Below, one piece after another: positions 84-31,841 of a DNA stretch of 31,841 bases. The notes under the pieces were generated by a model, which had not been told where the DNA came from, searched no databases, and was given only the letters and a program-made list of their open reading frames with translations. Origin of the DNA: Armatimonadia bacterium (GTDB taxonomy: Bacteria > Armatimonadota > Zipacnadia > Zipacnadales > UBA11051); the NCBI GenBank assembly GCA_039683575.1, contig JBDKRC010000246.1, positions 1 through 31,841 on the forward strand, in the 5' to 3' direction. The translations under genes were made by a program, and so were the position numbers. Positions within the stretch are counted from its first letter, which is position 1. Every line of letters starts with the position of its first letter.

Positions 84-165
84 CTTCACAACTTTCAATC
101 AGCAGGGGCCTTGGAAGACCCGGCCCCCTTGGGGGTCATCTCGGCGTCACCGCTTCGATGAGCCC

Positions 166-194
166 AATATGGCAGGAACGTCCCAATCCGTCAA
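166..194 (-). promoter_or_regulatory. sigma70-type promoter, leftward
   Basis: Minus strand TTGACG (194-189), 17 nt spacer, CATATT (171-166). Confidence 0.7.
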
Positions 195-362
195 ATCACC
201 CTGCTTTCACAGGCATTTGCGCTACGCGCCGTCGAGCGTTGCGCGTCGATCCGCGCCGCGCCGGGCAGGGTACTCCCCCCACCACATGGCTAAAGCAATC
301 TAGACCCCACGCGTATTGTAGGCAGGCTGTTTTACTACAGACCAAAAAAGTAATCAGGGGTA

Positions 363-390
363 TTGACACCATAAATCCATGTGATATACC
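363..390 (+). promoter_or_regulatory. sigma70-type promoter for HNH gene, probably leaderless transcript
   Basis: TTGACA 363-368, 16 nt, TATACC 385-390 preceded by TG; ATG at 398 with no SD. Confidence 0.55.
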
Positions 391-397
391 CCTACCT

Positions 398-877
398 ATG
401 ACACATCCATCTCAGATAAATTTCCGCGCTCTGTTCCGGTATGATCAGGCATTGGGCGTCCTCATTCGTCTCAGCACTGGAAAACCGACCTATGTCATGT
501 GGAAGCGCAAGAAAGATAAACGGGAGCGCCCATACGGTTTTGTAGATGTCAGCGGTAAACGCTATGCGGTACACCGGGTTGTATGGGCCGTGGTGCATGG
601 CGCATGGCCAGAGGGTGATCTTGATCACATCAGCCGAGATACAAAAGACAATCGGATTGAAAACTTGCGACTGGCACCCCCGGTTGTAAACTCCCGTAAC
701 AAATCTAAAGCAAAGAACAACACCAGCGGTCACAACGGCATTGACTGGTCGCAAGGCGGATGGCGCGTCAGGGTTGGAACGGTATTTGGCGGGCGCTACG
801 GCAGTCTTGAACTGGCGCTAAAAGTCCGAAATCTACTTTACAGTGAACTTGGATATTCCGACGACCACGGCGGTTGA
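398..877 (+). CDS. HNH homing endonuclease (HNH_3-like core, AP2-like C-terminus)
   Basis: HRVVW...WPEGDLDHISRDTKDNRIENLR...N motif, then NNTSG...W tail; start reassigned from 158 to ATG 398. Confidence 0.88.
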   Translation: MTHPSQINFRALFRYDQALGVLIRLSTGKPTYVMWKRKKDKRERPYGFVDVSGKRYAVHRVVWAVVHGAWPEGDLDHISRDTKDNRIENLRLAPPVVNSRNKSKAKNNTSGHNGIDWSQGGWRVRVGTVFGGRYGSLELALKVRNLLYSELGYSDDHGG

Positions 878-909: not shown

Positions 910-1398
910 ATGGATTTGAGCCCGTTCAACTACACCAAATGGTCCGACCGCTTGGCGTTCGACATGGCCCTCCTCTTGGAAGGCAGTGGTGAGCAGATGG
1001 ACGAACTGCTCCAGCGCCACCGCATCACCACCGACGAGATCGCCGCCTTCAGCAAGGACCCGGTGTTCCTCAAGAAGGTGGAGCATTACCGCGAGGAAGT
1101 CCGTGACAAGGGCCTCACTTTCAGGATGAAAGCGCGGGCACAGGCAGAGGAACTTCTTGTCACGTCTTGGACGCTGATCCATAGCGCGGACGTGAGCGCA
1201 GCCGTGAAGGCCGATCTTATCAAGCAGACGGTCAAGTGGGGCGGGCTGGAACCCAAGAATGACGCCGAGGTCAATGCCGGTGGCGGGGTCAAGATCACCA
1301 TCAACCTCAACTCACCCACGCCCTCCCTTGAGGAAGACGATGCCTACGCGGTGATCGAACACGATGAGGCCGCCGATGACGATTACCAGCCTGCCTGA
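910..1398 (+). CDS. terS: putative terminase small subunit
   Basis: 162 aa helical protein upstream of terL, ending in a beta-strand motif (GGVKITINL) and acidic tail; positional inference. Confidence 0.55.
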   Translation: MDLSPFNYTKWSDRLAFDMALLLEGSGEQMDELLQRHRITTDEIAAFSKDPVFLKKVEHYREEVRDKGLTFRMKARAQAEELLVTSWTLIHSADVSAAVKADLIKQTVKWGGLEPKNDAEVNAGGGVKITINLNSPTPSLEEDDAYAVIEHDEAADDDYQPA

Positions 1399-1786: not shown

Positions 1787-3178
1787 ATGGCAATCGAGAT
1801 CAACTATACCCCGCCGCCCACCGGCAAGCTGTTCATGGAATGCGATGCCAAGATGCGCGTCCTCATGGGGCCTGTGGGTTCGGGCAAGAGCGTGACATGC
1901 AGTTTCGAGATCGTGCGCCGAGCATCCATGCAGAAGCCGGATCAGACCGGCAGACGCCGCTCCCGCTGGGCGGTGGTGCGCGAGACCGCGCGCCAGCTTC
2001 AGGACACCACGATGAAGACGTTCCTCGACTGGTTCCCGCCGGGGCCGTGCGGCACGTTCATGAAGACCACCAAGACGTATTTCTTCAAGGTCGGAGACGT
2101 TGAGGCGGAAATCATGTTCCGCGCGCTGGACGATGCCGACGATGTGGCGAACCTGAATTCGCTGGAGCTTACCGGGGCGTGGTTCAACGAGTGCCGGGAT
2201 ATCGACCCGGCGATTGTCGACGCGATGTCCAAGCGCATCGGGCGCTTTCCCAGCGCCAAGGATGGGGGCCCCTCGTGGTTCGGGATGTGGGGCGACACCA
2301 ACCCGCCCACCATGGACACATGGTGGTACTACCAGATGGAGGGGCTGGACCCTACCGATGGCGTAAATCCCAACGACAATGGCTGGTCGGTGTTCAAGCA
2401 GCCGTCCGGGCGCAGCCTGTATGCCGAGAACGTCGAAAACCTGCCAGAGGGGTACTATGACACGCAAGGACGCAGCGACGAGTATGTGCGGGTATACATT
2501 GACGGCGAATATGGCCTTAGCCTCGCTGGTATGCCTGTCTACAAGTATTTCCGCCCTGACTACCATATGGCTCGGGACCATATCCGCCCTTTCATTGGCG
2601 GCATTCGACCAGTCATCGTCGGCATGGACTTGGGGCTCACGCCCGCCGCCCTGATCGGGCAGCAAGACCCGCGCGGGCGCGCCCTCGTCATGGCGGAATG
2701 CGTCAGCTACGACATGGGTATCCAGCGGTTCGTGCGGACGCTGCTGAAGCCGATGCTGTTTGAGCGGTTCTCGGGCTGCCCGGTGATGGTGGTGGTCGAC
2801 CCGGCGGGCACCGCCCGTGCCCAGACCGACGAGCGCAGCGCCGTCGACATTATCCGCGCCGAGGGGTTCAAGGTCATTCCGGCCAAGACCAACACGATCT
2901 CGGCGCGCATCAGCGCCGTCGACGATTTCCTCATGCGGCAGGTCGACGGCGACCCGGCCTTCCTCGTGGACCCGTCATGCACGCATCTGAAAGCGGCGAT
3001 GATGGGCGGCTACCGCTACAAGCCCACGGGCGACAACCTGATCGACAAGAACAAGCACAGCCACGTTGCGGAAGCCCTCCAGTACCTCATGCTGCATATC
3101 AACACGGTGGGCGGGGATGCGATGTACCAGCACCTGAAGCGCGAGGTCAGGCCGATCTCGTCGTTCGGCTGGACCTGA
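1787..3178 (+). CDS. terL: terminase large subunit
   Basis: Walker A GPVGSGKS, Walker B-like AWFNE, coupling motif DTNP, nuclease VGMDLG, C-terminal SHVAEALQY. Confidence 0.95.
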   Translation: MAIEINYTPPPTGKLFMECDAKMRVLMGPVGSGKSVTCSFEIVRRASMQKPDQTGRRRSRWAVVRETARQLQDTTMKTFLDWFPPGPCGTFMKTTKTYFFKVGDVEAEIMFRALDDADDVANLNSLELTGAWFNECRDIDPAIVDAMSKRIGRFPSAKDGGPSWFGMWGDTNPPTMDTWWYYQMEGLDPTDGVNPNDNGWSVFKQPSGRSLYAENVENLPEGYYDTQGRSDEYVRVYIDGEYGLSLAGMPVYKYFRPDYHMARDHIRPFIGGIRPVIVGMDLGLTPAALIGQQDPRGRALVMAECVSYDMGIQRFVRTLLKPMLFERFSGCPVMVVVDPAGTARAQTDERSAVDIIRAEGFKVIPAKTNTISARISAVDDFLMRQVDGDPAFLVDPSCTHLKAAMMGGYRYKPTGDNLIDKNKHSHVAEALQYLMLHINTVGGDAMYQHLKREVRPISSFGWT

Positions 3179-3187
3179 TACAACCTA

Positions 3188-3216
3188 TTGCGTCCTGCCA
3201 CGCGTCATGCCATACT
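3188..3216 (+). promoter_or_regulatory. sigma70-type promoter just after terL
   Basis: TTGCGT 3188-3193, 17 nt, CATACT 3211-3216. Confidence 0.65.
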
Positions 3217-3222
3217 AATTGT

Positions 3223-3302
3223 GTCTCTGCGGTTGATCCACCCTGCTGTGGGGGCACTCCTCCCTGTTGGAACTTCCCCGGTGGTTCGCCACCGGGGCTT
3301 TT
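3223..3302 (+). ncRNA. candidate ~80 nt small RNA with CUCCUCCC anti-SD loop (cuckoo/alpha-r14-like)
   Basis: Bounded by promoter 3188-3216 and terminator 3276-3302; GGCA-CTCCTCCC-TGTT stem-loop at 3253-3268; 5' end estimated from promoter. Confidence 0.55.
3276..3302 (+). terminator. intrinsic terminator
   Basis: CCCCGGTGG-TTCG-CCACCGGGG 9 bp stem followed by CTTTT. Confidence 0.8.
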
Positions 3303-3312
3303 AGGAGACGCC

Positions 3313-3408
3313 ATGGCCAAGAAACCCGCCTTCAAGCCGTGTTCCAAGTGCCCCAGCCCGGCGAAGTGCAAGGCCGCTGGCCGTTGCATGGCCAAGGGCA
3401 AGAAGTGA
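3313..3408 (+). CDS. 31 aa Lys-rich, four-Cys peptide (MAKKPAFKPCSKCPSPAKCKAAGRCMAKGKK)
   Basis: AGGAG SD at 3303-3307, ATG 3313, stop overlaps next GTG. Confidence 0.75.
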   Translation: MAKKPAFKPCSKCPSPAKCKAAGRCMAKGKK

Positions 3409-3560
3409 AAGCCGTCTGGGACAAACCCCGGCCCAAGAAGCTGGGCAAGTCGAAGGCGCTGACCGCAGGCCAGAAGGCCAAGGCGCGGGCCACCGCCAAG
3501 AAGGCCGGTCGGCCCTATCTCAATCTCGTTGACAATATGAACGCCGCCAAGGGCAAGTGA
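3405..3560 (+). CDS. 51 aa basic protein (MKAVWDKPRPKK...AGRPYLNLVDNMNAAKGK)
   Basis: GTGA coupling with the previous gene and TGATG coupling with the next. Confidence 0.7.
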   Translation: MKAVWDKPRPKKLGKSKALTAGQKAKARATAKKAGRPYLNLVDNMNAAKGK

Positions 3561-3883
3561 TGGCCAAGACCCCTGCATGGCAGCGCAAGGTCGGGCAGAA
3601 CCCCAAGGGCGGGCTCAACGCCAAGGGGCGCGCCAGCGCCAAGGCGCAGGGCATGAACCTCAAGGCACCGGTCAAGGGCACCCCCTCCGGGCCGCAAGAG
3701 GCACGCCGCAAGGGATCGTTTCTGAGCCGTATGGGGGGGTCTCCGGGGCCTGAGCGCGATGCCAAGGGGCAGCCGACCCGGCTGCTGCTCAGCCTTCAGG
3801 CGTGGGGAGCCTCGTCGAAAGCGGACGCCAAGGCCAAAGGCAAGGCGCTTCTGGATAGGTATCGAGGCACCAAACCCAAATAG
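3560..3883 (+). CDS. basic phage protein, DUF6321-like
   Basis: AKTPAWQRK.GQNPKGGLNAKGRAS...LKAP...RKGSFLSRM pattern recalled as DUF6321; not searched. Confidence 0.7.
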   Translation: MAKTPAWQRKVGQNPKGGLNAKGRASAKAQGMNLKAPVKGTPSGPQEARRKGSFLSRMGGSPGPERDAKGQPTRLLLSLQAWGASSKADAKAKGKALLDRYRGTKPK

Positions 3884-3892
3884 GTTTTGCTG

Positions 3893-3930
3893 TTGCATGG
3901 GTTGACGTACTGAGATATCTTTCTGTAATT
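3893..3930 (+). promoter_or_regulatory. one or two overlapping sigma70-type promoters for the accessory virion block
   Basis: TTGCAT 3893-3898, 17 nt, TATCTT 3916-3921; also TTGACG 3902-3907 with TAATT at 3926-3930; GGAGG SD 3932-3936. Confidence 0.55.
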
Positions 3931-3943
3931 CGGAGGGATACCC

Positions 3944-4291
3944 ATGCCTACTGTTACCCCCAGCATTGTCACGACGACCGGTGTCCCGTGCGTCACATGG
4001 GCCGGGATGATTACCGGCGACACCATCAACGCCTTCACGATGCGGGAGCAGTGGGGTCTGGCCGGATCGGTCCAGATCAGCGGCACCTTCGGCGGGGCCA
4101 CGGTCAAGCTCCAGCACAGCAATGACGGCACCAACTGGTTCGACGCGGTGGATATCCGGGGCACTGCCGTCTCGGCCACGACAGCGGCCATTTTCGAGGT
4201 GACGATCTCATCGGTCTATTTCCGGGCCACCGTGACCGGCGGCTCAGCCAACAGCATCAACATGATCGTGGCCCTGCGCGGACTGTACTGA
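3944..4291 (+). CDS. small beta-rich virion protein
   Basis: Strong SD; SVQISGTFGGATVKLQHSNDGTNW...YFRATVTG all-beta pattern. Confidence 0.65.
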   Translation: MPTVTPSIVTTTGVPCVTWAGMITGDTINAFTMREQWGLAGSVQISGTFGGATVKLQHSNDGTNWFDAVDIRGTAVSATTAAIFEVTISSVYFRATVTGGSANSINMIVALRGLY

Positions 4292-5799
4292 TGGGTATCC
4301 ACCTCCCGCTCCTTCGTCGCAGACTGTTTAGCGGAACGACCTTCTCCCCCGCCGCACTCTTCGCCGCCAGCGAACCCGGCGTCTGGTACGACCCCAGCGA
4401 CCTCACGACGATGTTTCAAGACGCGGCTGGCACCACGCCAGTGACCGGGGTGGAGCAGCCCGTGGGCCTGCGGCTGGATAAGTCGAAGGGGCTGGTGCTG
4501 GGGAGCGAGTTGGTCACGAATGGCGACTTTGCGTCGGCCACGGGTTGGACGGTAGGCACCAACTGGGCGATTATCGGAGGCGCTGCTACCGCAACTGCGG
4601 CGGTTTACAATACGGACAATCTTGATACGAGCGTCACGCTCACCGCTGGCCGCACCTACAAACTGACATTCTCAATATCCGGCTACTCTGCTGGTTCCCT
4701 TCGCCTTGACGTTGTTGGCACCCAGTCTGTCATCACGGGCAGCGTCACGGCAAACGGTTCTTACACGTACTACTTTGCCGCAGCGTCTGGCGGGGCTAAG
4801 ACGTTCCGGTTCACAGGCAGCACGGGGACGGCATTCACTGGCTCTATCGACAACATCTCCGTCCGCGAACTCCCCGGCAACCACGCATTCCAGACCACGG
4901 ACATCAACAGGCCCGTGCTGTCTGCCCGCGTGAATAGGTTCGTGAACACGGCAACGCTGGCCACGCAGAACGTCACGACCGTTGCCGCGAACTACACGCT
5001 GCGCTTTGAAGGCACAGGTTCCATTGCGCTATCTGGCACGGCATCGGGCACCTACAGCGCCGGAAGTCACACGGTGACTTGCACGGCGGGTACGCTCACA
5101 GCCACCGTTACTGGCACCGTCACCAACGCTGATATTCGGGTGGCGAATGATGGTGTCGGGCTTCCGGTCTATCAAGCCGTTACCAGCGGCACCGAAGGCT
5201 CCGGCTCTGGCGGCCCCGGCACGATCACGTACGACACCACGGGCTTCCCGCTGTACCTCCGCTACAACGGCACGAACTCCACGATGCAGACGGCGGCCAT
5301 CGACTTCACAAGCACGGACAAGATGAGCGTGTTCGCGGGGGTGCGGAAGCTGAGTGATGCGGCGGCAATGCACTTTGTGGAGCGTTCCGCCTCTACATTC
5401 TCCAACAACGGCGCATTTACGTTAAATAACTTTAACCCGCAGAGCGGGGCAGTAAGCAGCCTATATAGCTTTATTTCAAAAGGAACTATCTACCCCATCA
5501 CAGCGCCGAGAGCATCGGGGTACGTTGCGCCTATCACGAATGTCGTAACAGCGCTTGGCGATATACCTGCCGACAGCGCAATATTGCGCGTCAACGGTTC
5601 GCAAGTGGCAAGCGACAACGGGGACCAAGGCACCGAAAACTACGGCAACCACCCGCTCTACCTCGGCGCACGCGCTGGCTCTTCTGGTTGGTTCAATGGC
5701 CGCGACTACGGCCTCATCGTCCTCGGGCGCACCGCGACAGCCACGGAGATCGCCAGCACCGAAGCGTGGCTGAATGCAAGGACCAAAGCCTATGCCTGA
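4291..5799 (+). CDS. receptor-binding/fibre protein, LamG/ConA-like scaffold with inserted carbohydrate-binding-like domain
   Basis: GVWYDPSDLTTMFQD N-terminus, GSELVTNGDF...IDNISVRE module, C-terminal LRVNG...LYLGAR...FNG; Thr/Gly/Ala-rich. Confidence 0.7.
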   Translation: MGIHLPLLRRRLFSGTTFSPAALFAASEPGVWYDPSDLTTMFQDAAGTTPVTGVEQPVGLRLDKSKGLVLGSELVTNGDFASATGWTVGTNWAIIGGAATATAAVYNTDNLDTSVTLTAGRTYKLTFSISGYSAGSLRLDVVGTQSVITGSVTANGSYTYYFAAASGGAKTFRFTGSTGTAFTGSIDNISVRELPGNHAFQTTDINRPVLSARVNRFVNTATLATQNVTTVAANYTLRFEGTGSIALSGTASGTYSAGSHTVTCTAGTLTATVTGTVTNADIRVANDGVGLPVYQAVTSGTEGSGSGGPGTITYDTTGFPLYLRYNGTNSTMQTAAIDFTSTDKMSVFAGVRKLSDAAAMHFVERSASTFSNNGAFTLNNFNPQSGAVSSLYSFISKGTIYPITAPRASGYVAPITNVVTALGDIPADSAILRVNGSQVASDNGDQGTENYGNHPLYLGARAGSSGWFNGRDYGLIVLGRTATATEIASTEAWLNARTKAYA

Positions 5800-6127
5800 C
5801 GTCTTCAAAACAATGATCCTCGCCGCCGACACCATCGACCTCGCCCGCGAGATTTGCGCCTCGTTTGGACCGGGCGGGGCTGGAATGTTCATCACGCCGC
5901 TCTCCGCAGACGGCACAGACCCCGCGACCCACTACATCTCTTCGGGGTACATCCCCGAAGCCTTCGCGCACCTCCTCGATGACCCCGTAGCCGTCTACGA
6001 GGCCGCTACGGCGCAGGGCGTCATCTGCACGCTGGAAGAGGTCGAAGCAGTCTTGGCATCGTCTGACATCAGCACTGATGAGCCATTTGCGGCGATGGCG
6101 CGTCTTGGATTGGTGATCGTACAATGA
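5792..6127 (+). CDS. hypothetical protein, possible fibre chaperone
   Basis: AAGGA upstream of ATG 5792; acidic; coupled directly after the RBP. Confidence 0.55.
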   Translation: MPDVFKTMILAADTIDLAREICASFGPGGAGMFITPLSADGTDPATHYISSGYIPEAFAHLLDDPVAVYEAATAQGVICTLEEVEAVLASSDISTDEPFAAMARLGLVIVQ

Positions 6128-26553: not shown

Positions 26554-28881
26554 ATGGCCGCACCGCAGCAGTATTCCGGCAAGGGCTTTATCCTTGGCGG
26601 CGTCACTGACGACACACCCGATTGGCTGGGCTCGTATAACGAGGGCGTTCAGGGCGCGCAGCAGCAGACCCAGAACCGACTGAACCAGCAGGAAAGCAAG
26701 CAGCGGATGGCGCAGAACGCTGCGGCGGAAGCCCGGCGTGCGACCGAGTTCGACTGGCAGTCACAGGACCGTGCCCGCACGGAAGCCGCTTGGACCGACC
26801 AGCAGGGACTGCCCGGCCTTCAGACACCGCAGGGACCGGCACTTGGTCCAATGGACCCCATGGTCCTCCCGGCTCCCATCGCGCCCAGCCCCGGCCTCAT
26901 GGAGGACGCCACTCCTGCCGCGCCCGGCAACAACGGCGCGATCACGCGCGAGCAGTTCATCCAGCTTCTGCCTGAGTGGGCGCGCATTGAGCAGGCCGAA
27001 GGTCTGCCGCCGAACTATCTCGAAACCATCTCCATGCTGGAAAGCTCCGGTGGCACCAACACCGGCAGCGGCAACAAGTACACCGGCATCTTTCAGGTCG
27101 GCCCCGAAGTCGCCGCCGACTTCGGCGTAACCCCCGAACAGCTTCGTGATCCGCGCATCAATGCGCAGGTGGCAGCCAAGCTGGCCGCTCGCAACGCCAA
27201 GCTACTGCGGGCGCGTCTGAACCGCGAGCCGCAGCCGTGGGAGCTTTATCTGGCGCACCAGCAGGGCGCTGGCGGCGCTACCTTGCTTTTGCAGAACCCC
27301 GACCGCAATGCGGTAGATGTATTAACGGCTGCTTATAGCAACGACCGCACGCGAGCGCAGCAGGCTGTAATCCAGAACGGCGGCGACCCTCGCATGACCG
27401 CTGGTGAGTTCGCCCAGCTTTGGGCCAGCAAGTTTGGCGGTGCCCGCCCGCAGCCGTTCACCGGCCAGCCCGGTGTGCAGACGGATGGACAGGTTCCCTT
27501 CACACGCGATCCGAACCGGTCGGACCTTGCCAACGACTTCGGCGCGGCCAGCGCCCAGACGGATGCCGACTTCGCCATCGGCACCATCATCAAATCGCTC
27601 ACGGACTTCAGTGGCGGCGGCGGTCGTACCAACGCGTTCCAGCAGGGGCTGGCCTACGCCTTTGGTGAGAGCGGCGAAGCCGGTAACATGATGGCTGCCA
27701 ACGAGCAGGCAGAGGCCGCTCGCTCGTGGTATATGTCGTTCGACACGCAGGCTTGGCTGCGCAGCAACCCACAACTTATTGCTCAGGCCCAGTCCGACCC
27801 CATCGCGGTCTATAACCAGTACAAGGATCAGGTCGCCCCGGCTGCGCCCGAAGCAGCCAAGGGTGATCTCCCCGCTGGCGTGCAGGAAACCATGCCCGCT
27901 GCGCCCGCTCCCGCGCCCGCTGCTCCTGCCCCCACGCCTGAGCCCGGTATCGCCCCGCCCGCGAGCGACGAAGCGTTTGTGACCGCCGCGCAGAGCATCG
28001 GTACGGATATCGTCCCGGCTGTCAGCAATGCTGACTTCGCGGGCGTAACCGCGCCCGGCATCGGCACCATCGCCCAGCAGATCATGCGTGCGCCGCCCGG
28101 CCAGCAGGCAGCCCTGCCGGACAGCGGGCTCTACATTGCCGAGCCTGCCAAGATCAGCGCCGACCTCAACGAACTGATGACCGCCCGGCAGATGCTGGAG
28201 CGCCGCTACAATGACGCCATGCGCTTCCGCGACCGGCAGACGATGCTCGACATCGAAAGCAAGGTCATAGAAGTCGACGCGGCCACCCGCCTGCTCCAGA
28301 ACATGCAGTCCATCGCGGCACTGGAGGGCGGCGACACGAACCAGATTTCGCAGACGCTCTCCCGTCTCACGGGGGGCCAGACGCGCATTCAGGAGGTTCA
28401 GCCCGGTGGCACGTTCAACATCTACCAGAACGGCCAGCTTGCCTATCAGAACGTACCCAAGCAGGCGCTCATCGCCTCGCTGCGCTCGCAGTTCGACCAG
28501 CAGTACCAGCAGATGATCAGCGCCCGCGCCAAGCAGGCCGATGCCATTGAGATGGAGCAGGTCAAGCAGGCTGGCCAGACCAACATGGAAGTGGTCAAGC
28601 GGCAGGCCGACACGTACAAGGAACTGGCGATCAAGCGCGCCGAGCAGCAGTACAACTCCGACCCGCGCAATGCCGAGTACAGTGCGTCCACCCAGACCGG
28701 ACCCGATGGCTCCCCGATCCTGTTCCTCACACCCAAGCGCGGCGGGCTCCCGCCGCAAATCTGGCAGCTTGTGCCTGATCTCGGTGTCGATGGTCAGCCG
28801 CTTGCCGGGCCGGACGGCAACCCCAAACTTAGCTGGAAGCAGCAATCAACCGGTGGTAACAACACAGTACCGGTGCAGTAA
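26554..28881 (+). CDS. internal virion protein with SLT lytic transglycosylase domain
   Basis: GLPPNYLETISMLESSG (catalytic Glu), GIFQV, DPRIN, YLAHQQGAGGA. Confidence 0.8.
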   Translation: MAAPQQYSGKGFILGGVTDDTPDWLGSYNEGVQGAQQQTQNRLNQQESKQRMAQNAAAEARRATEFDWQSQDRARTEAAWTDQQGLPGLQTPQGPALGPMDPMVLPAPIAPSPGLMEDATPAAPGNNGAITREQFIQLLPEWARIEQAEGLPPNYLETISMLESSGGTNTGSGNKYTGIFQVGPEVAADFGVTPEQLRDPRINAQVAAKLAARNAKLLRARLNREPQPWELYLAHQQGAGGATLLLQNPDRNAVDVLTAAYSNDRTRAQQAVIQNGGDPRMTAGEFAQLWASKFGGARPQPFTGQPGVQTDGQVPFTRDPNRSDLANDFGAASAQTDADFAIGTIIKSLTDFSGGGGRTNAFQQGLAYAFGESGEAGNMMAANEQAEAARSWYMSFDTQAWLRSNPQLIAQAQSDPIAVYNQYKDQVAPAAPEAAKGDLPAGVQETMPAAPAPAPAAPAPTPEPGIAPPASDEAFVTAAQSIGTDIVPAVSNADFAGVTAPGIGTIAQQIMRAPPGQQAALPDSGLYIAEPAKISADLNELMTARQMLERRYNDAMRFRDRQTMLDIESKVIEVDAATRLLQNMQSIAALEGGDTNQISQTLSRLTGGQTRIQEVQPGGTFNIYQNGQLAYQNVPKQALIASLRSQFDQQYQQMISARAKQADAIEMEQVKQAGQTNMEVVKRQADTYKELAIKRAEQQYNSDPRNAEYSASTQTGPDGSPILFLTPKRGGLPPQIWQLVPDLGVDGQPLAGPDGNPKLSWKQQSTGGNNTVPVQ

Positions 28882-28890
28882 GAGGGCGAC

Positions 28891-31841
28891 ATGGTTGGAC
28901 TGAAAGAACTCGACCAGTTTGACTACGGCGTTCAGTACCAGCGTGGCCAGCCGAGCGTAACGCAGGTTTCCGGTCTTGCCGGGCTGGCATCGCCCGCCAC
29001 CGTCAATATCTCCAACGCCACGCAGAACTCGCTCAACGACATGCGCCGTCTGGGCGAGATGCCTGTGGCACCGCCCCCGCTGCCGTCCGCGCAGCCGCAA
29101 GGGCCGGTCCTCGCCATCAGCCGTTCGACGGGTAAAATCTGGGCCAACGGCAAGCTGTTCACCAGCGACGATGCGCAGGGCGCGGTCGAGAGCGAACCGT
29201 TTGTAAATTCGGCACCCGTGCCTGCACCCGCCGCTGAAGCCAGCGACTGGGAGCCGCTGTCGATGGAAGCCTATTCGCAGCACCTCCAGAAGATCAAGAA
29301 CCCCGGCCTTGGCACGCTGGCGTCCAAGAACTTCGGCATCGGCGTTGATAACATGCAGATGCTTGCCGGTTACGGCATGCAGTTCCTTGGCGCGGAGGAG
29401 ACCGGGCAGGCTGTCGTCCAGCAGCAGCTTCAGGACATCAACAAGAACGCGCCGTACCAGCGCAATTTCGAGGACGTTGGCTCCAGCCCGGAGCGTGGCT
29501 ACCTCGACTGGTTCGTTGCCAACCTCGCCCAGCAGGGTCCGAACCTCGTCGAAAGCGTTGTCACGGCTGCCGTTGGTGCAGGCGCTGGTGCCCTCGCGGG
29601 TGGCGGTCCCAACCCGGCCACTGCCGCAGGCGGTGTGCTGACCGCACTTGTCGGCAAGCAGGCGTTCAAGCAGGCACTGCTCAGCGCCGCCAAGAAGTAC
29701 ACGGCGGGCGAAGCCCTCGACGCCGCCGAGAGCAAACTGCTGCGCGAAGCCGCTGGCCTGACTGCCGCCGCGCGCAAGGAACTGTTCGATAAGGTCGGCA
29801 CCATGTCGACCAATACGGCGGGGGTCACTACGCGCTTCGGCGCTGATGACGCGGTTAGCGCCGCGAACACTATCGTCGGTACAGGTGCCACGAACATACT
29901 GACTGCTGGCAAATCTCAGGCCATGCTGGGCGGTGCCGCGCTTGCGTCCGGCCTTCAGAACTACGCCACGGGTGTCTCTGACCTGTACGGTGAAAGCGTC
30001 GAAGGCGGCGATCCCAGCCGTGGGCTGGCTGCCCTTGGTGGTATCCCGTACGCCGCGCTCGAAACTGTGCCCGAGTACATCGCGGCCATGCGCATCTTCA
30101 AGGGCATCGGCGCACGCACCACCGCGCTGGCTGGCAAGAGCAAGCTGGGCAAGGCCGGTGAAATCGGCGCTCGTGTGGGTATTGGCGCTGGCGCTGGTGC
30201 GGCTATCGAAGGCAGCACGGAGGTCGGTCAGGAACTGCTGGGCATCGGGATGAACGATGCTGTCGACGCCGACAGCCCGGAGGGCATGTCCCGCATCCTC
30301 AACGCCTTCGCCGCTGGCGCTGCCATCGGCGGCTTCATCGGAGCCGGGTCCAACCTCAACACTGGCAAGCCCCACGATGTCCTGTCTGGCGGCACCAAGC
30401 CTGCCGACATGGGCGACACCACGCTGACCGGCGAGATCATCCCGCCAGACAGGCCGCGCAGCCCCATCGGCCCTGACGGTTCTGTTGCCGCACTGCCGCC
30501 GCCTTCGGCTCCCGCCCTTGGCGGTTCTGCGATCCCCATGCCCGATCAGTCGGCTGCCGCCCCGACCGGCGGTGTGAGCCCCCAGACAGTAGTGCCTCCG
30601 GGGGTAGGTCAGACACAGCAGAATATGTTTTCGCAGCAGCCTGCCCAGCAGGCGCTGCCCCCTGCCACAACGATCTACAACCCGGCACCTGCGCCGAGCC
30701 CCATGCTCACCGGGCCGGAAATTCCGCAGCGCCCTGCGCCGTCCACCACGCCGTCGGTCATCCCCATGGGTGGTCCTGCCGCTGGCTCCGCGCTTCAGCA
30801 AGCAGCCGAAGGCACGCTGACTGGTGGCATCCCCGCTGGCCCGCTGGCCAACCGCTTGCAGCAGCAGGCGGCAGAGGCGCGTGCGCGTGCCACCCAGCAG
30901 GCCGAGCGCAATCGCATCACGGCGCAGCAGGATCAGGTTGCCGCAACCAGTGGCTCCGCACTGGCCCAGATCGGTCGTGGCGAGATGGTTCCGCCTATCG
31001 ACCAGCCGGGCGGTCGCGTCTCCATGGGTGGCGAAGCCACCGGCCAGATGGTCGAGCCCATGACGGGCAAGGCCAAGCTGAAGCGCCGCAAGAAGGGTCA
31101 GCCGCTTATCGAAGGAGCGCCCGTTGCCACGCAGCCCCAGCCCGAACCCGGACCAGTTCAAGCGGCAGAGCCAGCAGCAGCGCCAAAGGGCGCGGCTCTT
31201 AAGCGAGGTAAAGCGCCGGAAGTCGCTAAAGGCGCAGCGCCGGAAGCCGAAGTAAGCGCCGCCCCGGTCCATGACCGGTACATCGCGGAAGTCGATGACG
31301 CCCTGCTGAACCTTGAGAGCAAGGGCAAGCTCAAGGGTATCATCAAGCGCGCCATCCTCGCTGGTGTCATGACGCAGAAGCAGGCCGATGGTCTGGACTA
31401 TCTGTTCAAGGACCGGGACACCAGCGTGGAGGACATCGCGCCGGACCTGTCCAGCATCATCGAAGCCAACAAGCCGAAGGCCAACAAGCTGAAGCGTGGC
31501 AAGGCTACCGAGCAGGGCAAGGAAGTCGTGCCGACCGAGGTGAAGACCGAGGTGGTGCCTGACAAGAAGGAACCGCCGAAGCTCAAGGAGCGCCAGCGCC
31601 TACCGAAGCTGGACCTCGCAGCAAAGGACGAGCCAAGCCCAAAAGCGGAAGGGGCCGCAGCCGCCCCCGCGCAAAAGGCTGAACCCGGCACCGCCCTCGC
31701 ACTGGTTGACGACAAGAAGACCCACTTCGTTGACCCGGAGATCGAAGCGTATTTGAACGCCAAGCGCAGGCGCGAGCTTGCCGACGAAGCGGATTTCGAG
31801 ACCTCCGACGAGGATATGGTTCAGGATATGATCGACGTTGT
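28891..31841 (+). CDS. large internal virion/ejection protein, 3' truncated (at least 983 aa)
   Basis: GAGGG SD, ATG 28891 (MVGLKELDQFDYG...); frame appears open to window end; Gly/Ala hydrophobic segments then Pro/Ala/Lys-rich linker; missing from ORF track. Confidence 0.8.
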   Translation, partial: MVGLKELDQFDYGVQYQRGQPSVTQVSGLAGLASPATVNISNATQNSLNDMRRLGEMPVAPPPLPSAQPQGPVLAISRSTGKIWANGKLFTSDDAQGAVESEPFVNSAPVPAPAAEASDWEPLSMEAYSQHLQKIKNPGLGTLASKNFGIGVDNMQMLAGYGMQFLGAEETGQAVVQQQLQDINKNAPYQRNFEDVGSSPERGYLDWFVANLAQQGPNLVESVVTAAVGAGAGALAGGGPNPATAAGGVLTALVGKQAFKQALLSAAKKYTAGEALDAAESKLLREAAGLTAAARKELFDKVGTMSTNTAGVTTRFGADDAVSAANTIVGTGATNILTAGKSQAMLGGAALASGLQNYATGVSDLYGESVEGGDPSRGLAALGGIPYAALETVPEYIAAMRIFKGIGARTTALAGKSKLGKAGEIGARVGIGAGAGAAIEGSTEVGQELLGIGMNDAVDADSPEGMSRILNAFAAGAAIGGFIGAGSNLNTGKPHDVLSGGTKPADMGDTTLTGEIIPPDRPRSPIGPDGSVAALPPPSAPALGGSAIPMPDQSAAAPTGGVSPQTVVPPGVGQTQQNMFSQQPAQQALPPATTIYNPAPAPSPMLTGPEIPQRPAPSTTPSVIPMGGPAAGSALQQAAEGTLTGGIPAGPLANRLQQQAAEARARATQQAERNRITAQQDQVAATSGSALAQIGRGEMVPPIDQPGGRVSMGGEATGQMVEPMTGKAKLKRRKKGQPLIEGAPVATQPQPEPGPVQAAEPAAAPKGAALKRGKAPEVAKGAAPEAEVSAAPVHDRYIAEVDDALLNLESKGKLKGIIKRAILAGVMTQKQADGLDYLFKDRDTSVEDIAPDLSSIIEANKPKANKLKRGKATEQGKEVVPTEVKTEVVPDKKEPPKLKERQRLPKLDLAAKDEPSPKAEGAAAAPAQKAEPGTALALVDDKKTHFVDPEIEAYLNAKRRRELADEADFETSDEDMVQDMIDV

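Follow-up and report, generated by a model that had tools for sequence, protein, structure and literature searches.

A candidate SorX/SorY-like small RNA directly behind the large terminase gene of an uncultured phage

The region directly downstream of terL in this phage contig carries an element best explained as a phage-made, SorX/SorY-like small RNA that would act in trans by pairing with G-rich ribosome binding sites, a reading to which we give a probability of about one half. Transcription of the RNA would begin shortly after terL, from a weak promoter of the extended -10 form; the RNA would probably also be released from the 3′ end of terL transcripts, and would end at the terminator listed in Table 1. 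Its predicted build is that of SorX and SorY of Rhodobacter sphaeroides, with a 5′ hairpin, a single-stranded C/U-rich seed (CCUCCCUGUUGGA) and a terminator hairpin. The seed, and perhaps also the C-rich loop AUCCACCC, would pair with the G-rich ribosome binding sites of host mRNAs, phage mRNAs or both, and so block translation start late in infection. An earlier note, made from the DNA alone, was right in kind but misnamed the family: the element is a SorX/SorY-like phage variant that scores below the curated cut-offs.

The window, by which we mean the whole stretch of DNA analysed, is an entire 31.8-kb contig from a 352-contig, 6.2-Mb metagenome-assembled genome (MAG), and its gene content is exclusively that of a phage. 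Besides the packaging genes in Table 1 it encodes tail-fibre-like, SU10-type portal, major head, internal virion and transglycosylase proteins. An 808-aa ORF at the end of the structural module (28846-31272, - strand) has no PHROG match.

Table 1. Positions of the element and its neighbours in the window
Feature	Position	Strand	Details
HNH endonuclease	158-877		
Putative terS	910-1398		conserved 162-aa protein in the terS position
terL, large terminase	1787-3178	+	Pfam Terminase_3, PHROG 2; conserved upstream neighbour of the element; stop TGA 3176-3178
Promoter-like site	3188-3216	+	TTGCGT 3188-3193, 17-nt spacer, CATACT 3211-3216
Predicted small RNA, ~80 nt	3223-3302	+	start placed from the -10; end at the U tract
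5′ hairpin, 11 bp	3223-3233 with 3245-3255	+	loop 3234-3244, UGAUCCACCCU
Seed CUCCUCCCUGUUGGA	3257-3271	+	anti-SD-like; mostly unpaired in the predicted fold
Intrinsic terminator	3276-3302	+	stem CCCCGGTGG 3276-3284, TTCG 3285-3288, stem CCACCGGGG 3289-3297, C 3298, TTTT 3299-3302
AGGAG SD and 31-aa Cys-rich ORF	3303-3408	+	SD 3303-3307; next ATG after terL at 3313 (not 3314); first of three small ORFs
Three small basic ORFs	3313-3883		31-aa product with four Cys; 51-aa Lys-rich product, phrog_34011; 107-aa DUF6321 protein
orf115	3944-4291		next gene shared with relatives

The earlier note had described a promoter pair, about 80 nt with no credible ORF and a UUCG terminator, and the hexamers, the stretch and the hairpin with its four U are all where it put them; ORF conservation across the element is absent in the window and four relatives. 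The -35 hexamer agrees with the sigma-70 consensus at three of six positions and the -10 at four of six, with 17-nt spacing, and a TG at 3208-3209 gives the extended -10 form (TGc-CATACT). The terminator has a 9-bp GC stem and a UUCG loop (-19.1 kcal/mol); no other hairpin on the window's + strand is both strong and terminator-like. The tail of one C and four U falls below the rule of our scan, where relatives have five to six U, and a U tract this short makes read-through likely. A simple consensus scan of the window accordingly listed neither the promoter (-35 at 3/6) nor the terminator (only four U).

The predicted fold consists of a single 11-bp 5′ hairpin, a mostly open CUCCUCCCUGUUGGA and the terminator. 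The strings from which two small hairpins had been drawn are there (CCAC 3238-3241, GTGG 3248-3251, GGCA 3253-3256 and TGTT 3265-3268), but the two-hairpin fold itself is not what is predicted; the motif CTCCTCCC, read directly from the sequence at 3257-3264, is exposed under either fold. A weak 3-bp UCC/GGA stem within the seed is predicted to leave UCCCUGUU open. The mean probability of being unpaired for CUCCUCCC is 0.66 if the RNA starts at 3223 and 0.40 if it starts at 3226, the seed being less exposed in the second case because the G run at 3250-3254 pairs with it. The loop UGAUCCACCCU is a second exposed C-rich motif. The original proposal of a self-contained small-RNA unit that exposes a C/U-rich, anti-SD-like stretch is still the best reading of this anatomy.

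The fold from 3223 (-36 kcal/mol, z = -2.86) was equalled by two of 200 shuffles. Taken by itself the motif does not exceed chance: allowing up to two mismatches, a window should contain 0.88 matches, and at least one turns up in 65 of 100 shuffles. As the motif is non-significant and the scan lists neither promoter nor terminator, the case rests on the relatives and not on the window alone.

The terL gene has more than 600 relatives in IMG/VR, of which we kept the best 80 for analysis, and a further eight in MAGs of unrelated taxa; the best identity to a cultured phage is 43.8%. None of the DNA matches to the phage collection covers the intergenic region, and blastn with the RNA returned terminator-like pieces only (19 records, E at least 0.7). 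The window's type of element is shared by five loci (L007, L009, L010 and L006/L008) at 86-89% terL identity. In an alignment of the window with L007 and L010, identical columns made up 5/6 of the -35, 12/12 of TCATGC plus the -10 and 11/15 of the seed, as against 1/11 of the spacer, 7/46 of the 5′ hairpin and 0/11 of the region after the terminator, and the terminator arms covary among close relatives. In L009 the promoter-like pair is instead TTGACT-17-CATTCT and in L006 TTGACC-17-TAGGGT, and both loci keep UCCACCC in a hairpin loop, on stems different from that of the window. Read from these alignments, the footprint of conservation fits a promoter, seed and terminator, not a coding region or a neutral spacer. 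About 60 nt past the first terminator of L006 there is a second C/U-rich stretch (GCCTTCCTTTGACG...) with a GC hairpin and a T run (L006:3075-3160), which may be a tandem second element.

The three small ORFs, which overlap at their stop and start codons (GTGA, ATGA), are an insertion peculiar to this phage when it is compared with its closest relatives, where the RNA is followed directly by a homologue of orf115. As the insertion is absent from relatives, the RNA belongs with terL and not with the 'micro-protein operon' to which it had been linked. A family search with the 31-aa ORF gave no match. The HNH, putative terS and terL genes all lack an SD sequence, as had been noted, but for terL this has an explanation other than the proposed immunity to the RNA: in relatives the start of terL overlaps or abuts the upstream stop codon, so that coupling to that stop, rather than any special immunity, explains the missing SD. 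Directly before the ATG of both putative terS and terL there is a C-rich CCACCC in place of an SD (895-909 and 1772-1786).

Across the whole window no Rfam family scored at or above its gathering threshold. When 3100-3400 was searched permissively (E<=10) there were seven matches, the best to SorX (RF02784) with 29.0 bits over 3240-3303 (E = 2.9e-5), which does not reach the cut-off of 46.6; SorY (RF02651) also fell short (26.5 bits; cut-off 111). What supports each of the two alignments is an identical CCUCCCUGUUGGA (3259-3271), a short spacer and the terminator. When the SorX model was run against the whole 6.2-Mb genome the window was the better of two matches (E = 1.4e-4), although it was not among the matches of the SorY model in the same genome. 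In 30 related genomes no SorX match passed the cut-off, the best reaching 24.3 bits, and all were below the window's 29.

The likeness to SorY is a likeness to a tested seed. In the SorY study the predicted pairing sites lie at positions 35-55, and mutations introduced at +39, +49 and +52 make takP repression weaker (PMC4615379); it is within this experimentally probed region that the shared 13-mer is found. SorX is described in a review as Hfq-dependent, cut from the 3′ UTR of RSP_0847 and repressing translation of potA (PMC9438474). In the window's predicted fold the SorX-type seed ACCUCCCUGUUGGA is single-stranded between the 5′ hairpin and the terminator. The identity of the seed to that of SorX and SorY lends support to the suggestion that the phage RNA mimics a host regulator.

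The combination of seed and terminator recurs in other phages. The 14-mer CCTCCCTGTTGGAA was found in 116 viral stretches, and in 18 of the 80 that we examined it was followed by a hairpin and T run within 45 nt, as compared with 0/80 on the other strand and 13/1600 at random places. One of the 18 is the contig of L007. Outside the terL group there are 15 distinct module sequences whose terminator stems are unrelated, which argues that the single-stranded motif is itself under selection. At three loci the module stands between a Mu-type major head gene and a Mu-gpT-DE RNA; in the others the upstream gene is either an HNH gene, with a tRNA on the far side of the module, or an ORF without a family match. 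In the Mu-like loci L127, L151 and L152 a CCUCCCUGUUGGAA-terminator module begins 7-11 nt behind the stop of gpT, the Mu-type major head gene, and the Mu-gpT-DE RNA (RF03012, 72.8-75.4 bits) follows directly after it. Roseobacter phage CRP-902 (L225) shares this arrangement behind gpT with the variant CUCCUCUCUGUUGGG and a terminator, and a related module also follows gpT in Roseobacter phage CRP-901.

With a longer pattern, 12 stretches yielded one more virus-derived locus and three from metagenomes. The SorX model scores them at 50.7 bits for L223, which passes the cut-off, 42.5 for L218, 40.4 for L215 and 40.0 for L220, and the genes upstream encode DUF2303 and GapR-like proteins, which are typical of alphaproteobacterial phages and prophages. 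L112 (37.3 bits), L105 (31.8 bits) and L007 (25.2 bits) score lower. By these scores SorX-like RNAs, which are common in phage DNA, form a graded series with the window at its far end. On the - strand of L112 (3939-4760) an HNH gene of the window's PHROG is followed by the SorX-like RNA, a tRNA directly after that and then a 461-aa ORF, so that the module there occupies a different slot of a related packaging region.

Among the other explanations, the one that survives best is a passive end of the terminase operon, in which the element is simply the terL 3′ UTR and its terminator, with the C/U tract serving termination, stability or protein binding in cis. We regard this as possible, if unlikely. 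The element always directly follows terL and holds the one strong + strand terminator of the window, and elsewhere the module is found 7-11 nt behind the stops of the Mu-type major head gene and other genes. In several of those phages this spacing leaves no room for a promoter, so that the element may be part of a 3′ UTR and its role not necessarily in trans. Termination, however, needs no exact single-stranded motif of 13-14 nt beside unrelated stems, and promoter-like sites are enriched before the element. An origin in a 3′ UTR is also compatible with action in trans, SorX itself being cut from one.

A second alternative is that the element is a leader or attenuator, with transcription from the promoter-like site mostly stopping at the terminator, and regulated read-through expressing the small ORFs and structural genes. 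The lambda PR′-tR′ RNA, a short terminated RNA, offers a parallel. CUCCU would then mask the AGGAG SD in the read-through RNA, which is the pairing in cis that had been offered as an alternative to action in trans. The consensus scan found no promoter-like site on the + strand between the terminator and the next genes, the SD begins 1 nt after the U tract, and the minimum free energy structure of 3223-3345 does pair 3257-3261 with 3303-3307. Pairing in cis is therefore possible in the read-through RNA, but the minimum free energy structure has a frequency of only 0.05 and the pairing is absent from the centroid. The small ORFs and their adjacent SD are an insertion found only here, and with the SD directly behind the terminator peculiar to the window, pairing in cis cannot be a conserved function. 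Most relatives have a strong promoter after the terminator, and the module recurs in unrelated contexts. We consider an attenuator distinctly unlikely.

The wider group of terL relatives shows how general the arrangement is. A terminator lies within 260 nt in 61 of 67 distinct regions downstream of terL, and 54 of these 61 carry CCUCC, CUCCU, UCCUC or CUCCC between the stop codon and the terminator hairpin, counts that overstate independence because terL relatives share ancestry. Loss of the motif in relatives, which would have spoken against the original proposal, is thus not what is seen. The density of such pentamers in this interval is 35.9 per kb, as compared with 3.4 (+ strand) and 4.1 (- strand) per kb in the loci overall. 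A promoter-like site (score >=8) precedes the RNA in 49/61 relatives, which are again related by descent, and in 9.1% of 1220 control intervals; its offset differs between lineages.

Most relatives carry a different sequence type, which we call class B. It is found in L013-L093 directly behind terL (for example L014:4415-4479), and consists of a -10-like TGATATGAT over the stop codon, a hairpin, a single-stranded UUGUCACCUCC, a second hairpin of 5-7 bp with the loop (U)CUCCUUC and a terminator, after which there is a strong promoter for the next gene. The single-stranded part contains UCACCUCC. A covariance model (R1) built from 13 class B sequences found 48 loci at E<0.01, every one directly behind terL. 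The second hairpin occurs with more than 20 stem sequences and has compensatory changes in all six pairs. Its covariation score is 0.230, although the alignment was fitted to the R1 model and the score therefore favours structure; shuffles gave 0.098 (0/500 reach the observed score) and alignments with the partners slid at most 0.086. RNAalifold on 33 relatives recovered the terminator only, and an Rfam search of 20 relatives gave no family match. On this covariation we regard class B as a structured RNA motif absent from Rfam. The R1 model has no match in the window at E<=1, and matches L010, L007 and L009 only at E = 0.047-0.88. Because R1 misses the window, the window's type and class B are positional counterparts, not demonstrable homologues. 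Relatives also share, just after the terminator (for example L014:4485-4560), a promoter-like block of high conservation, TTGACA ... TGTATACTT, with a palindromic 5′ leader (CACACTACAATATGTAGTAGTGTG), a GGAGG and the next gene behind it in that order. Behind the window's terminator it has no counterpart.

A third alternative is that these RNAs are decoys of the 16S rRNA 3′ end, copying a helix 45 strand and the anti-SD tail and so sequestering SDs or a factor that binds the end. E. coli rrsH (L213) ends in CCTGCGGTTGGATCACCTCCTTA, positions 3227-3242 of the window read CTGCGGTTGATCCACC, which resembles CTGCGGTTGGATCACC... of rrsH, and most relatives (class B) have GCAGTTGTCACCTCC after a hairpin. 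In 16 of 61 elements the match to the last 25 nt of 16S rRNA is at a level reached by at most 2/200 shuffles (reverse complement, 0/61), but the comparison is post hoc and much of the score comes from the anti-SD core itself. The scores of 32/61 elements are unremarkable, with more than 10/200 shuffles reaching them, and the window's 16S-like string is built into a hairpin, as its 5′ arm and loop, instead of forming a 3′ tail. Decoy binding is a proposal from sequence likeness, and as an account of the window we find it doubtful. A little less doubtful, though still improbable, is the broader version, in which a large uncultured phage group makes RNAs that display an anti-SD tail at the end of the terminase operon and act as decoys of the 16S rRNA 3′ end. 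Most would present UCACCUCC after a helix-45-like hairpin and CUCCUU in a covarying loop, while the window's clade would present CCUCCCUGUUGGA. If this were true, SD sequences or end-binding factors would be sequestered and translation reprogrammed late in infection, a phage strategy hitherto undescribed.

True membership of the cuckoo family (alpha-r14/NfeR1, CcsR), which the earlier note had proposed, is very improbable: CUCCUCCC does have eight of the nine motif letters, and the element's positional counterpart in L009 matches ar14 weakly (31.1 bits, E = 0.037), but Rfam ar14 (RF02344, cut-off 58.8 bits) has no match at E<=10 in 3100-3400, and the window has one copy of the motif, in a linker. 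The family is defined by two to four adjacent hairpins with CCUCCUCCC in each loop and helices of at least 6 bp (PMC4615179). We rejected the identity on these grounds, the window having a single CUCCUCCC on a stem of at most 3 bp, and its only long hairpin having the loop UGAUCCACCCU.

The MAG has a one-piece tmRNA with the tag ANQPLALAA and no GapR, and neither it nor its 30 relatives has a SorX over the cut-off; it is probably not an alphaproteobacterium and probably stands outside the host lineage of SorX. No short match, CRISPR-like or other, joins the window to the rest of the MAG, binning being the sole link, and terL relatives occur in MAGs of six unrelated phyla or classes, so that binning is no guide to the host. 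Scanned for duplex targets, the window yielded the antisense self-match and sites within genes but nothing else, and at its start sites most of the pairing energy comes from generic SD pairing. Apart from the opposite strand of the element itself, the MAG contains no copy of the seed's complement, TCCAACAGGGAGG; allowing one mismatch gives 11 matches, one of them the self-match, and none is clearly at a start codon. No RNA data set was listed as containing 1787-5800. Two wastewater runs that may be RNA and two metatranscriptomes contained fragments of the contig only, mostly from relatives, with almost no depth over 3127-3394, coverage that speaks neither for nor against expression.

To our knowledge a mode of action is established for few regulatory RNAs of phages, all of them from cultured phages of enterobacteria or Pseudomonas. 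The candidate described here sits in a virion-gene module and carries the seed validated in two host stress sRNAs. The module's presence downstream of terL, of an HNH gene and of Mu-type capsid genes suggests repeated borrowing of this host sRNA seed by phages, presumably to switch off similar mRNAs, such as transporter or SD-led messages. Anti-SD RNAs behind terL are apparently a larger, undescribed habit of these phages. The titles and abstract openings of the SorX literature revealed no phage-borne copies, and a search of such records for phage-encoded anti-Shine-Dalgarno small RNAs found only a Caulobacter sponge RNA. Both the window's RNA and class B can be tested with reporters before any of the phages is cultured.

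Several known systems resemble the element in part. With the cuckoo RNAs (alpha-r14/NfeR1, CcsR1-4) it shares an anti-SD C/U-rich motif, of which the window exposes two, the loop AUCCACCC and the seed, but it lacks their repeated CCUCCUCCC hairpin modules. The icaR mRNA of Staphylococcus aureus reportedly has a C-rich anti-SD stretch in its 3′ UTR that pairs with the SD of the same mRNA; the C-rich anti-SD stretch in a 3′ UTR is similar here, whereas terL has no SD. The Mu-gpT-DE RNA (RF03012) is likewise a phage RNA element behind a late structural gene, but is a separate structured motif absent from the window. The likeness to SorX is closer, with a hairpin, a single-stranded ACCUCCCUGUUGGA and a terminator, all in sense orientation where a gene ends; the window's 5′ hairpin is longer and unrelated, the element seemingly has its own promoter, and it lies behind a phage terL where SorX lies behind the OmpR-type gene RSP_0847. 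Outside the shared 13-mer and the terminator build SorY has no other sequence likeness to the element, but it has the same 13-mer in its probed seed region and, as proposed for the phage RNA, is independently transcribed with a 5′ hairpin, seed and terminator.
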